A stretch of 20,866 nt of DNA from the IMG/VR virus record IMGVR_UViG_3300034407_003683, positions 1 to 20,866 of that record; one strand, written 5' to 3'. This DNA is from a virus. This document shows positions 98 through 20,510 of the stretch, one piece after another. The notes below the pieces were generated by a model, which saw only the letters and a program-made list of their open reading frames with translations, ran no database searches and had not been told where the DNA came from. The stretch's first letter is position 1; each line of letters opens with the position of its first letter. Both the position numbers and the translations under genes were made by a program.

Positions 98-483
98 GCT
101 AAATCCCCCGAAACGCAAGGCATCACAACTGCAATATCTGCTGGTTGTGGACTTGAGCCATACGGACCAGTTTGTATCTGATACTGAGATGTCGTCAGTT
201 GATTCACCGCAGCAGCACCGTATCCCGCAGAACCTGCCACTGTTGCTGAATAAGCACCTCCAGTCGCAACGCTATAATCTGCATTGCTCATGTTTGAAAC
301 AAAGGACAGGTCGTATCGGCCGGTCGTGATATCTGTTAAAGATGTCTGGTTAAATGTTGCTCTAATTGCAACTGTTCCAGTGCCATCGAAGTTTGCCCAC
401 GCCTTCGTTGCACTCTGCTTAGTCAGCGTGACAGGACTTGTGCCATTGCTAGCAGTGATTGTGTCTGTTCTTAGTTCACTCAT
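94..483 (-). CDS. Hypothetical virion/tail-fibre-associated protein (129 aa)
   Basis: Thr/Ser/Ala/Gly-rich, beta-strand-like (KAWANFDGTG...TGRYDLSF...YSV...GDLA). ATGA coupling at both ends. Function inferred from composition and context only. Confidence 0.65.
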   Translation of the reverse strand: MSELRTDTITASNGTSPVTLTKQSATKAWANFDGTGTVAIRATFNQTSLTDITTGRYDLSFVSNMSNADYSVATGGAYSATVAGSAGYGAAAVNQLTTSQYQIQTGPYGSSPQPADIAVVMPCVSGDLA

Positions 484-737
484 GCTATCACCAGATTACC
501 GTTAATTGTTAATACAACTGCACTATCGATTGTAAGTGGACCTGCAGTAAGTGCATTATCTGCAGAATCAATTGTATGAGATACCGAAAGGTTTTGATGA
601 TTTATTCTAAAAACATCTACTTCATATCCAATGGCTGCTGAATCCAATCCTACAGGAACATTATCCAAACTTTCGGATTTAATATCACCAGTAGATGTAA
701 ATGCTTTACTAATTAATCTTGCTTTTGACTCTGCCAT
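480..737 (-). CDS. Small putative virion adaptor protein (85 aa)
   Basis: Starts immediately after the g3 stop. N-terminus SKARLIS...TGDIKS resembles that of 15078..16517. C-terminal AGPLTID..VLTINGNLVI beta segment. Three D-S-A motifs. Confidence 0.65.
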   Translation of the reverse strand: MAESKARLISKAFTSTGDIKSESLDNVPVGLDSAAIGYEVDVFRINHQNLSVSHTIDSADNALTAGPLTIDSAVVLTINGNLVIA

Positions 738-1247
738 TTATACCAACTTAAAGTAATTAAATCTAAATGATGCCGCGAAAGTAATAAAAGTCTGCCCATC
801 AGCAGTAGATTCAAATTGGATATCACCTAATGATGTAGGAATACAATCCAAATATCTTATTTGTTTTGTCTGATTATTATGACTGGAAAGAATTGATAGT
901 GTTATATCTGCATATGTTGGAGTATCCGTATTAGTAGCAATACTACCTCTGGTACTAGTACCCATATTAGTATTTACCAATCTAAGAATCCAGTTATACA
1001 TCTCAGAATAACCTTCTAAATTCTCATCTAAGATAACATTTGTTGAAAGTTCATTAAATGTAAGAGATTCACCAGGCATAGGTAACCCAGCAAGTCTAGG
1101 AATACCTAACTCAACTGGATTTAGAATCATTCCGGGATGTGTAATTGTCTGACAAAAGAATTCTAAATTAGGATAATTACGTCTATCAATTACCAGCTTA
1201 AAACTGGTAGGTTGTAGGTAATTAAAATTTTCTGTTAATTGAGCCAT
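738..1247 (-). CDS. g3: Tail completion / tube terminator protein, T4 gp3-like
   Basis: NYLQPTSFKLVI..YPNLEFFCQ...PG, F.ELS...ILDENLEGY.E.YNW, D.TL.ILSSHNN and F.Y.F C-terminus are typical of gp3. Position after g23 as in marine T4-like phages. Confidence 0.85.
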   Translation of the reverse strand: MAQLTENFNYLQPTSFKLVIDRRNYPNLEFFCQTITHPGMILNPVELGIPRLAGLPMPGESLTFNELSTNVILDENLEGYSEMYNWILRLVNTNMGTSTRGSIATNTDTPTYADITLSILSSHNNQTKQIRYLDCIPTSLGDIQFESTADGQTFITFAASFRFNYFKLV

Positions 1248-1252
1248 GATAC

Positions 1253-1260
1253 TATTTATA
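1253..1260 (-). promoter_or_regulatory. T4-type late promoter TATAAATA upstream of g3
   Basis: Exact T4 gp55-dependent late consensus, between the g23 terminator and the g3 ATG. Confidence 0.85.
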
Positions 1261-18305: not shown

Positions 18306-18507
18306 CTGACCATATCACTTCTAGCATATATTGCGAACCGCAATCTTGAATTTCATCATATGTGCGCGAAATAGTATTATGTACAACTCGACTACTACCT
18401 TCATATTCATATATCATTTGTTCTATACACATTGAGCAATCTTCAGCAGCAACTGGCAAACAATGAAAAGTATGCGTTAATCCGTCTGAATCTATATATT
18501 GTTCCAT
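18298..18507 (-). CDS. Hypothetical protein (69 aa)
   Basis: Fills the gap between co-oriented genes and overlaps the next start by 8 nt. Acidic, four Cys. No recognised family and no clear RBS. Confidence 0.55.
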   Translation of the reverse strand: MEQYIDSDGLTHTFHCLPVAAEDCSMCIEQMIYEYEGSSRVVHNTISRTYDEIQDCGSQYMLEVIWSDA

Positions 18508-18528
18508 ATCATTACTATGCCATTCGTA

Positions 18529-19182
18529 TTACTGATACGCTGGCCATACTCCTATTCCCATCCATTGACTTGGTTGATTACATCCACCATTAATACCGCC
18601 CCAATTCTGATTACCGATATGAGGCCTCATAACCGGATTTCCAGGGGGATCGCAATTACAAGCAACAGAGTTATTGAAGTGCCAACTTGCAGAATTTTTT
18701 CCAGTCAAATTATATGTACTATCATTTCCACAACTGCGTCCTAAAAATGGTGCTGTGCCAGTTCCGCTACCATAAGTTCCGTTATTTATTAAAGCAGACC
18801 TATAACTTTGCACATTTGAAGTTACGGTATATGTCGGGGAACCTTTATTGGATGATGACCCAAAGTAGAAATACATTTGTTGTATAGTTGTACCTTTATT
18901 ACTTATAAAATATTTTAAGAATTCAGAATAAGCATATGCATATTGCGCGCGACCGCTGGTACCGTTTGGAAAATATTCATACCACCACATTGTTGTTCCT
19001 GCCCATTGTAAAGGACCTGGGGGAACGGCACTTTTCCCATAAAACTGATTCATAGAAATAGTGCCACTTGAAGGAATTCCATCTGCAGCACTATAATATT
19101 CATTCAATGAGATAGGATTCGAACCACCAAACTCTGTTTGGATTTGAGATAAAGAAATTGCTCCTGAAGATTGTAAAGCCAT
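18529..19182 (-). CDS. Putative tail-fibre-associated / distal adhesin protein (217 aa)
   Basis: N-terminal SSGAISLSQIQTEFGGSNPISLNEYY...P.SGTISM..FYGKS module of the kind that follows S74-chaperone fibres. Aromatic/Gly/Cys-rich C-terminal domain. TAATG coupling to the fibre gene. Confidence 0.7.
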   Translation of the reverse strand: MALQSSGAISLSQIQTEFGGSNPISLNEYYSAADGIPSSGTISMNQFYGKSAVPPGPLQWAGTTMWWYEYFPNGTSGRAQYAYAYSEFLKYFISNKGTTIQQMYFYFGSSSNKGSPTYTVTSNVQSYRSALINNGTYGSGTGTAPFLGRSCGNDSTYNLTGKNSASWHFNNSVACNCDPPGNPVMRPHIGNQNWGGINGGCNQPSQWMGIGVWPAYQ

Positions 19183-20510
19183 TATTCACCCTTTAACTTT
19201 TTAATTTCTGCTTTCAGTTCTTCGATTTGCTTTTGTTGTTCTTTAATCGCTTCGATAAAGTATCCTGATAATCCACTATAGTTTACAGAATAATAGTCAT
19301 GTTCTTCGTGTACTAGTTCTGGTGCAACTTCAAGCATTTCTTGAGCAATGACACCAGTACCTTGTTGTCCATCTTTTTCAAATGTTACGCCACGCATCTG
19401 AGTAACTTTATCAAGACCAGAAACAGTTTCAACATTTGTCTTGAGTCGTGCATCAGAGTATGCAGTAACGTTCCCAGACATGGTCAACGTACCACTGTTC
19501 ATAGTCATATAAGTTCCGACCTGAAGATAATTGATCATACCAGTACTAGTTCTATTACCTATGATACATTGATTTGAACTTGATGTACCTGTTGGTTCTG
19601 CATCATAACCAAGAAGAATATTATAATTGCCATTCAGCTGCGTTCCAGCTGTATATCCTATAGACGTATTATATGCACCGCTTCCGAAGAAACCAGCTTG
19701 ATACCCAATACCAATATTATAGTTGTTGCTAGTATTATAACCAGCCTGATATCCAATTGATACACCGTAACTTCCGTTACTCCCAGTATATCCTGCTCTA
19801 TATCCTATGCAAATTCTATCCGCGGCTGTAAGATTATATCCAGCCTGATGTCCTATCATGATATTTCTATTTCTATTCTGTTGTTGATAACCAGCTTGAT
19901 ATCCAATAGAAATAGAATAAGTTATACCATAAGCCAAACCTGCAGCATAATTACCAATAGCAACGTTATTATTATTCGCAGTAGCACTGGCACTTTGTCC
20001 ACCGTTACTAAATTCACCAATCGCAATATTACCAGGCCCAGTTGTATTATATTGCGATGCATCTTTACCGATTGCAATATTAAGATTTCCAGATGTAATA
20101 TCATCTAGTGAATTTAATCCCATTGAGATATTATTTGCACCTGTTACACTAGTTGATATTCCAGTGCCGGCATTATAAGAATATATGTTATTACTAGCGT
20201 CATTAGAGAATGCTCCACCACCACCTGCTCTAGCAGAAATATATGCAGAATCAATCAACGTAAGGACTTCACCGGAATCAAGTGAAATAGTTCTTACATC
20301 AGAAAGTGATGTTGCAGTAGAAGTAATCAGAGAAATAGTTGATGCAGAGTCTAGACCTCCAGCAGAAGCAACTTCTGATTTTCCACCTTTACCGTCATCA
20401 ATGGCGACATTACCGCTTGATGTAATGGACTCTTCTTCGATCGCACGTTTCATAAACGTAGCAATTTGCCGCGATTTACTGAATCTTCTTGTAAATGCTT
20501 TATACGCCAT
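19182..20510 (-). CDS. Tail fibre-like protein with YadA-head-like repeats and C-terminal intramolecular chaperone (peptidase S74) (442 aa)
   Basis: About 11 N..IGY.AG-type repeats. YSDARLK.N autocleavage motif, GV.F, GVIAQE....PELV, V.Y..L....IEAIKE and a terminal coiled coil. Confidence 0.87.
   Translation of the reverse strand: MAYKAFTRRFSKSRQIATFMKRAIEEESITSSGNVAIDDGKGGKSEVASAGGLDSASTISLITSTATSLSDVRTISLDSGEVLTLIDSAYISARAGGGGAFSNDASNNIYSYNAGTGISTSVTGANNISMGLNSLDDITSGNLNIAIGKDASQYNTTGPGNIAIGEFSNGGQSASATANNNNVAIGNYAAGLAYGITYSISIGYQAGYQQQNRNRNIMIGHQAGYNLTAADRICIGYRAGYTGSNGSYGVSIGYQAGYNTSNNYNIGIGYQAGFFGSGAYNTSIGYTAGTQLNGNYNILLGYDAEPTGTSSSNQCIIGNRTSTGMINYLQVGTYMTMNSGTLTMSGNVTAYSDARLKTNVETVSGLDKVTQMRGVTFEKDGQQGTGVIAQEMLEVAPELVHEEHDYYSVNYSGLSGYFIEAIKEQQKQIEELKAEIKKLKGE

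Follow-up and report, generated by a model that had tools for sequence, protein, structure and literature searches.

The locus and its virion genes

The stretch of DNA treated here, positions 1 to 20,866 of IMG/VR virus record IMGVR_UViG_3300034407_003683 (20,866 nucleotides, below called the window), carries the block of head, neck and sheath genes of an uncultured T4-like phage and belongs to contig G000, a partial sequence of 97.9 kb; positions above 20866 follow the same contig numbering past the window end. The subject is a tripeptide found in many of its virion proteins, Asp-Ser followed by Ala, Gly, Asp, Asn, Ser or Thr (hereafter DS-small, the third residue being +1), which a first-pass annotation had read as the acceptor motif of a glycosylation-like surface-modification system. 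Judged by gp23, the nearest GenBank phage is C48C1 (69%), followed by HTVC008M and Melnitz at 61%. A literature search returned no paper on phage C48C1, and the host labels drawn from metagenome-assembled genomes are mutually inconsistent for these phages. The virion genes and sites that bear on the motif are as follows (aa, amino acids).

480 to 737, minus strand: small 85-aa protein of the virion module, after gp3; three DS-Ala sites
1323 to 2678, minus strand: gp23, major capsid protein; DS at aa 135, 152 and 156, in a segment that appears to replace the T4 I-domain
2205 to 2276, minus strand: outer-loop DS cluster of gp23; aa 135 is D-S in 52 of 52 sequences of the clade described below, with both Ser codon classes
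7147 to 8904, minus strand: gp18, sheath; DS-small at aa 62, 105, 129, 156 and 259, none in aa 282-585
11814 to 12164, minus strand: 116-aa fibre-like protein; three sites
12174 to 12965, minus strand: gp15, tail terminator; DS at aa 225, 247 and 261
13009 to 14220, minus strand: gp14, neck protein; inserted extension with seven sites (aa 203-321), past the conserved neck domain (aa 11-178)
15078 to 18305, minus strand: 479-aa and 581-aa fibre-type proteins; DS confined to the N-terminal stalk
18298 to 19182, minus strand: 69-aa and 217-aa proteins; each has a single site, which by itself is not significant
19182 to 20510, minus strand: 442-aa tail fibre with S74 chaperone domain; three sites in the N-terminal stalk
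20542 to 20866, minus strand: 3' end of a 704-aa fibre that continues past the window
24308 to 31910 of the contig, outside the window: DS-rich fibres
43648 to 53472 of the contig, outside the window: DS-rich genes for a 203-aa, a 393-aa and gp7-, gp8- and gp9-like proteins

Enrichment and placement of the motif

Paired figures such as 33 vs 17 or 158/49 are observed and expected DS-small counts unless another peptide is named. The first-pass total of 33 sites and its distribution among proteins were exact on recount, and the reported absence from 2,519 aa of gp3, gp22, gp21, the 70-aa protein, the gp67-like protein, gp20, gp19, gp17, gp16 and gp13 was reproduced, with their six DS dipeptides preceding Y, K, V, L, E and E, as was the use of mixed Ser codons. 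Across the window the dipeptide itself is not enriched (43 vs 37 for all DS), and DS-small is (33 vs 17, reached in 0 of 300 shuffles), modestly so when any best six +1 residues are allowed as a correction for post-hoc choice (p=0.026); the inner proteins carry 0 vs 4.3 (Poisson p=0.014). Exceptions among the outer proteins are the 581-aa and 479-aa proteins, in which DS is not in excess (2 vs 6.2 and 3 vs 3.3), and two further probable outer proteins, of 129 and 286 aa, which the first pass did not list and which have no site.

The decisive out-of-sample test is provided by the virion genes outside the window, for which the residue set was fixed in advance, and it confirms the observation. 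In 13,142 aa of virion-module genes past the window DS-small occurs 159 times vs 46 expected and DS 184 vs 89; DS is there the top dipeptide (z=10) and ES is depleted. DT is depleted (65 vs 91), SD is not enriched (98 vs 89), and the sites are dispersed, with no long Ser-Asp repeats. Enrichment survives control for composition, by shuffling, by the best-six correction and outside the window. The non-structural genes of the contig hold 6 vs 14. Most of the out-of-window count is supplied by five repeat-rich proteins (starts 24308, 27228, 43648, 44285 and 52612), and the excess without them is 41 vs 27. Among baseplate proteins the outer set (gp7/gp8-type) has 21 vs 6.9 and the inner set (gp6, gp25 and hub proteins) 2 vs 8.3. 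At contig positions 43648-45466 (L002:10148-11966) lie a 203-aa protein with 16 DS at 15-residue spacing and a 393-aa protein with 29, neither of which matches Pfam.

Within single proteins the sites are also unevenly placed. Those of gp23 fall in aa 119-165, which by alignment stand in place of T4 residues ~141-221 and which we take, from that alignment, to be the counterpart of the I-domain, a domain that in T4 gp23 protrudes on the capsid surface (PMC9546572); across close orthologues this segment holds 98/28 and the core 0/17. Four of the five gp18 sites lie in outer domains I/II, aa 98-281 aligning to the solution-exposed, outward-facing domains I-II of T4, and across close orthologues aa 98-281 hold 158/49 and aa 282-585 only 8/29. 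The mapping proposed in the first pass thus places the DS of both proteins where the sequence aligns to outward domains of T4, and the candidate acceptor sites are predicted on that basis to face outward. The family of the 85-aa protein holds 14 vs 1.7. The FG-GAP propeller of the 581-aa protein (16560-18305) has no DS and many SD, of which the whole protein has 16; the putative binding domains of the fibres are generally without the motif. In several relatives (L029, L035, L038-L047) two genes stand in place of gp14, one of 198 aa for the core and another of 272-470 aa with 10-17 DS.

A clade-wide trait with missing core sites

It is clear that the pattern extends well beyond one genome. Typical counts in relatives are 2-5 sites for gp15, 3-6 for gp18 and 2-4 for gp23, with hardly any in gp13, 16, 17, 19, 20, 21 and 22. 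The outgroups T4, P-TIM40, S-SRM01, HTVC008M, Mosig and Melnitz have observed-to-expected ratios (O/E) near 1, so that equal presence of DS in all T4-like orthologues, which the first pass had named as a result that would count against modification, is contradicted by T4, pelagiphage, cyanophage and Melnitz alike. At gp15 aa 247 all 50 of 50 relatives have D-S and outgroups have D-D or similar. A marker test was built on this C-terminal loop, with 128 contigs chosen solely by Ser (70) or Asp (58) in gp15. The Ser contigs hold 122/40 in gp14, 120/47 in gp18 and 280/115 in other neighbours, vs 12/14, 26/24 and 141/137 in the Asp contigs. Across these contigs a single gp15 residue predicts enrichment in gp14, gp18 and fibres, which is the behaviour of a clade-wide switch and not of a fibre repeat. 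In a four-gene tree every DS-positive phage falls in one clade (support 1.0) on a long stem.

The complement of this gain is a loss at core positions, two of which lie in the window:

1839 to 1847, minus strand: aa 278, a core site of gp23; the clade has D-A-D, with DS in 0 of 60, and 14 of 22 outgroup sequences have D-S-N/D
7765 to 7773, minus strand: gp18 core site aa 378; D-N-N here, DS in 0 of 61 clade sequences, and D-S-G/T/S in 37 of 44 outgroup sequences

With a third in gp6 (DS-small in 5 of 6 outgroups vs 0 of 7 in the clade), these are three core DS-small sites common in outgroups and never DS in the clade. All four of four outgroup-conserved sites with a large +1 residue (DS-large) are retained in the clade, the baseline for complete loss of a conserved dipeptide being 27%. 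The absence from the core fits a tripeptide that has become a signal, harmful when misplaced, and would not be predicted for a turn motif. Depletion in gp22, gp3 and gp67 (3/36, 1/12 and 3/13) is only suggestive, the homologues being non-independent and the comparison uncontrolled. Genome-wide avoidance of DS-small in non-virion proteins was considered and rejected (see below).

C48C1 (OQ984149) is the sole GenBank phage in the clade, and its gp9-like connector at 126305-131011 is DS-rich (31 vs 17.7). Together with G048 it forms a nested subgroup in which DS is found mostly in fibres and one sheath loop; both core sites checked there (gp18 and gp23) are absent.

Definition of the motif

Some 2,700 distinct sites pooled from relatives have I, L, V or an aromatic residue before the Asp. 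At +1 the pooled ratios are 3.6 for A, 3.0 for D, 1.3 for S, 1.2 for G, 0.9 for N and 0.5 for T; Pro, Glu, Arg and Tyr are depleted 3-5-fold, Q is depleted as well, and the large hydrophobics and Thr (L/V/I/M/T/F) stand at about 0.27-0.51 of expected. DS-negative phages have no +1 preference of this kind. Both codon classes, AGY and TCN, occur in each of the seven conserved DS columns, where Thr replaces Ser in ~2% vs ~6% at other Ser columns. As read from the pooled sites, the refined motif is hydrophobic-D-S followed by A or D, less often S or G, with Thr apparently not accepted as the hydroxyl residue. The +1 set of the first pass was right in A and D and mildly so in S and G; N is neutral and T depleted, and neither belongs. 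Phosphopantetheine attachment, cited in the first pass as known at DS motifs, finds nothing in its support, L and I of the D-S-L/I carrier motif being depleted at +1 (0.37 and 0.47) and the DS proteins having virion folds.

Glycan genes and a candidate enzyme

The first-pass statement that no modifying enzyme lies in the window is confirmed, and about 20 glycan-related genes are found elsewhere on the contig:

33992 to 42102 of the contig, plus strand: glycan cluster A, outside the window
77018 to 77713 of the contig, minus strand: candidate enzyme B1, 231 aa, single domain
77706 to 84515 of the contig, minus strand: rest of glycan operon B, outside the window
83721 to 84515 of the contig: B10, a GT-A enzyme resembling GT8/GT24

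Operon B is conserved and has GT25/GT8 genes around B1; methyl- and carbamoyl-transferase genes are among the glycan genes of the phage, and no flippase or polymerase was seen in the operon. B10 matches, among other GT-A folds, a capsid-glycosylation glycosyltransferase (GT) of chlorovirus PBCV-1 (2p6w, E 7e-9). The cluster A genes were rejected as a link to the trait, as their identity is variable and their presence among relatives patchy. An epimerase at 82582-83724 (L004:14582-15724), by inspection like uridine diphosphate (UDP)-sulfoquinovose synthase and 70% identical to a gene of G002, is a possible source of an anionic sugar donor, and three transfer RNA genes (Gly, Met, Arg) lie immediately downstream of operon B (L004:7342-7577).

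Comparison of four near-complete positives with five negatives left just six discriminating families, of which two are transferases, a GT25 and B1. B1 is present in 12 DS-positive phages, two of them weakly (G000, G001, G002, G006, G012, G024, G058, G061, G062, G065, C48C1 and G048), and absent from 15 long DS-negative T4-like genomes or contigs; HTVC008M and Mosig have neither DS excess nor B1. Among GenBank phages it is matched only in C48C1 (OQ984149, 102720-103382). DS-positive contigs without B1, where checked (G003-G005), end before the B1 locus. B1 sits 25-75 kb from the DS-rich genes, a distance at which a comparison limited to flanking genes would overlook it. The enzyme co-occurrence envisaged in the first pass is found in this sense, with the reservation that all positives form one clade and the association therefore counts as one evolutionary event. 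A search for divergent B1 carriers that could supply an independent contrast gave no viral contigs, only short weak metagenome matches. The B10/GT25/GT25/B2/B1 core, or B2 and B1 alone, also occurs in backbones unlike the clade (L691:7163-10621, L692:10001-20630, L713:9373-10639), one of these carriers having a bacterial-type beta clamp, so the cassette is mobile; carriers outside the clade are ERZ25072293, ERZ28496113 and ERZ25068043.

The B1 model (predicted local distance difference test 88.5) gives structural Z scores of 10.7 with Maf, 10.0 with CstI, 9.9 with SteA, 9.3 with MptE and 6.7-7.8 with GT29; the superposition on Maf (PDB 5mu5) has a root-mean-square deviation of 3.8 over 169 residues at 9% identity. 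On this model B1 is predicted to have a Rossmann-like sialyltransferase fold (Maf/GT29/GT42-like). Foldseek ranked CstII and sialyltransferases first, weakly, with nothing under E 0.001, and stretches like sialylmotifs L and S can be seen by inspection. A neighbouring Atlas cluster has PF01973 at 34%, a lead. As for a donor, adjacent kdsA-like and kdsB genes for synthesis of cytidine monophosphate (CMP)-activated 3-deoxy-D-manno-octulosonate (Kdo) occur in the DS-positive genomes G001 (130627-132052) and G006 (78203-79610), two of five; no phage NeuB was found in the same genomes, and supply of the donor by the host is possible.

Exact T4 late-promoter octamers on the minus strand at 1260, 4644, 8970, 13004, 15018, 16543 and 20537 precede, respectively, gp3, the 70-aa gene, gp18, gp15, gp13, the 479-aa gene and a fibre, and 18 of 20 exact matches in the contig precede genes, mostly structural.

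Interpretation and alternatives

The trait is real, is shared by the whole clade and is difficult to account for through fold alone. The best explanation, unproven and in our judgement somewhat probable, is that hydrophobic-D-S-[A/D, less often S/G] would be the acceptor sequon for phage-encoded O-glycosylation of Ser. An enzyme acting in the cytoplasm would attach a sugar to the Ser of the motif in accessible loops and stalks of virion proteins, whether freshly synthesised or already assembled; most likely it would be a phage glycosyltransferase of operon B. The remaining transferases (GT25/GT8-like, methyl- and carbamoyl-) would lengthen and vary the chain, and the head, neck, sheath and outer baseplate, with the stalks of the fibres, would come to bear a variable glycan coat. 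We infer the covalent nature of the modification, the sugar as adduct and the identity of the priming enzyme. The leading guess for that enzyme, a tentative one based on the modelled fold, is B1 as a CMP-sugar transferase that would place Kdo or a nonulosonic acid directly on Ser; of similar plausibility is a scheme in which a GT-A enzyme, for instance B10, would prime and B1 would cap. It is possible, if doubtful as a whole, that an abundant clade of marine T4-like phages has evolved a cytoplasmic protein O-glycosylation guided by a sequon, in which a minimal Maf-like enzyme adds Kdo, or an acidic sugar akin to it, as the first unit on the Ser of D-S-A/D, lipopolysaccharide (LPS)-type transferases assemble a glycan resembling an LPS core at hundreds to thousands of virion sites, and the virion proteome has been re-coded to suit the enzyme, with outer sites gained and core sites lost. 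The benefit of the coat may be a shield against proteases or grazers, against decoy receptors or against aggregation, or else a change in surface charge. The surface-modification reading of the first pass is in this way supported in part, by motif, clade, placement and enzyme link, and its Bacteroidetes and phosphopantetheine parallels fall away.

Several findings weigh against glycosylation by the phage. The core losses are only three events, their ancestral state is uncertain, and some outgroups also lack DS there. Non-virion DS-small has an O/E of 0.54 vs 0.73 in negatives, but the SD-small control shifts equally (0.64 vs 0.86), so that these figures do not establish a general avoidance outside the virion; the clade has moreover gained DS-small in gp55 (late sigma factor) and gp45 (sliding clamp), which are non-virion proteins (for example L157:18753-19361). 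The nested C48C1/G048 subgroup keeps B1 with little or no core-surface excess (C48C1 59/54 overall), and gp15 of G048 has Asp. As to the enzymes, all positives belong to a single clade on a long stem, in which any clade-specific gene would give the same pattern as B1, and B10 was rejected as a specific marker because the complete DS-negative phage G007 carries it at 56% and C48C1 is without it. SteA ties with the best fold matches of B1 and the MptE kinase is close; sequence searches with B1 gave no Pfam, PHROG or PDB match and a PDB profile search nothing meaningful; and among exact matches in the contig no late promoter was found directly upstream of operon B.

The most serious rival, unlikely in our view, holds that D-S-A/D is an Asx/ST turn, a helix cap or the start of a fibre repeat, spread by repeat expansion and domain shuffling with no enzyme involved. 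The densest proteins, which supply most of the out-of-window count, do show regular DS spacing of 9, 13 or 15 residues, and DS replaces the NG, NP, SG or DA of relatives in hairpins and stalks, at turn or repeat-start positions, a point that also tells against a sequon. Yet the same folds work without DS in outgroups, even in adjacent repeats of one protein, and structure offers no reason for a joint switch of gp15, gp18, gp23, gp14 and gp8, which have no common fold or repeat. The fall of DT and of DS-large, the intolerance of Thr and the missing core DS are also left unexplained, and the +1 depletion of Pro, Glu, Arg and Tyr is unlike a capping box, which would call for Pro or Glu next to the cap and a Glu three positions later (here +1 P 0.21 and E 0.30; E 0.91 at D+3; V/I at D+4).

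Less probable again is a covalent modification other than phage glycosylation, made by a host cytoplasmic transferase or by a kinase or phosphotransferase, with the phage GT operon modifying host LPS. All of the sequon evidence fits this equally; the B1 fold class includes the MptE/TPK pyrophosphokinases (MptE Z 9.3, with the PF01973 lead); the published reading of such GTs, proposed for pelagimyophages, is as O-chain modifiers (PMC7029224); and the cassette is also present on unrelated backbones. On the other side stand the sialylmotif-like stretches of B1, its GT25/GT8 neighbours and the first rank of sialyltransferases in Foldseek, as well as an operon in which no flippase or polymerase was seen and six discriminating families with no kinase among them. 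The least probable of the three, binding by DS tags to a decoration protein, to divalent cations or to surfaces, whether mineral or organic, with selection on the unmodified tripeptide, accounts for outward placement, for the clade-wide switch and for a gp15 Ser that stands for Asp in an acidic loop, and two small clade-specific proteins, both unannotated, track the trait to about the same degree as B1, but it explains poorly the core absence, the need for Ser over Asp, Asn or Thr and the first place of Ala at +1.

Relation to known systems

Phage-encoded sequon glycosylation, if it occurs here, would have parallels in several systems and would match none of them. In mycobacteriophages, whose own GTs are proposed to coat structural proteins, the glycans lie at the C-termini of capsid and tail tube proteins (Freeman et al. 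2023, as cited in PMC12619734); phage-encoded GTs are likewise proposed here to coat structural proteins, but the predicted modification would lie at tens of internal sites in many unrelated proteins with a common tripeptide, and the tube protein gp19 has none. Maf enzymes transfer nonulosonic acids or Kdo to Ser/Thr at the flagellin surface, with no known sequon (PMC11339370). The predicted fold of B1, and direct transfer of a CMP-activated acidic sugar to a surface Ser of a polymerising protein as the model reaction, would recall Maf; in contrast to the 231-aa single domain of B1, Maf exceeds 600 aa, accepts Thr and has no known sequon, the last of which counts against the proposal. Staphylococcal SdgB/SdgA act on Ser-Asp repeats with D-S-D as the minimal acceptor (PMC8561734), which is among the two favoured forms here, and the sugar is transferred directly to Ser; SdgB, however, has a GT-B fold and uses UDP-N-acetylglucosamine on long SD repeats, whereas here SD is not enriched, the sites are dispersed, the most frequent form is D-S-A, and nothing like an SdgB gene was identified. 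Taken with the motif, the B1 link would resemble Maf or SdgB action applied to the virion, as in mycobacteriophages.

The Bacteroidetes O-glycosylation sequon, D-(S/T)-(A/I/L/V/M/T/S/G/F/C) (PMC8729774), shares the Asp directly before the acceptor hydroxyl and the common Ala at +1. It is periplasmic and accepts Thr and large hydrophobic +1 residues, whereas here DT is depleted, Asp is favoured at +1 and virions assemble in the cytoplasm; the parallel drawn in the first pass fails on Thr (DT 65 vs 91) and on +1 I/L/V/M/T (0.29-0.51). The match of B10 gives a likeness to chlorovirus PBCV-1. PBCV-1 is a eukaryotic virus with Asn-linked capsid glycans, which differ from the Ser motif here, and those glycans are not known to follow a canonical sequon.

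Also comparable are the pelagimyophages and cyanomyophages, whose LPS-like GT clusters are interpreted as modifying the host O-chain (Zaragoza-Solas 2020, PMC7029224). Like them, the present phage is a marine T4-like phage with many GT8/GT25-type genes inside and outside the fibre island; unlike here, no virion motif was seen in the passages of that paper that were read, and, as noted, HTVC008M and Mosig have neither DS excess nor B1. Literature searches returned no report of this DS motif, nor of a sequon-based virion coat in tailed phages, and both the core-site loss and the link of B1 to the motif are new here.

Significance

The reason for the many LPS-type glycan genes of marine T4-like phages is an open question, for which remodelling of the host O-chain is the published guess (PMC7029224). 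The present finding offers an alternative, with a predicted acceptor tripeptide, exact sites in gp23, gp18 and gp15, a candidate enzyme and donor, and a GenBank phage, C48C1, that belongs to the clade. Should the proposal be wrong, the gain of a single tripeptide paired with its loss elsewhere, throughout the clade and over unrelated folds, would still call for an explanation. Should it be right, the "LPS genes" of these phages would be re-assigned from the host to the virion, tailed phages would be seen to have a sequon-based virion coat, and a short portable tag for cytoplasmic O-glycosylation would be at hand.

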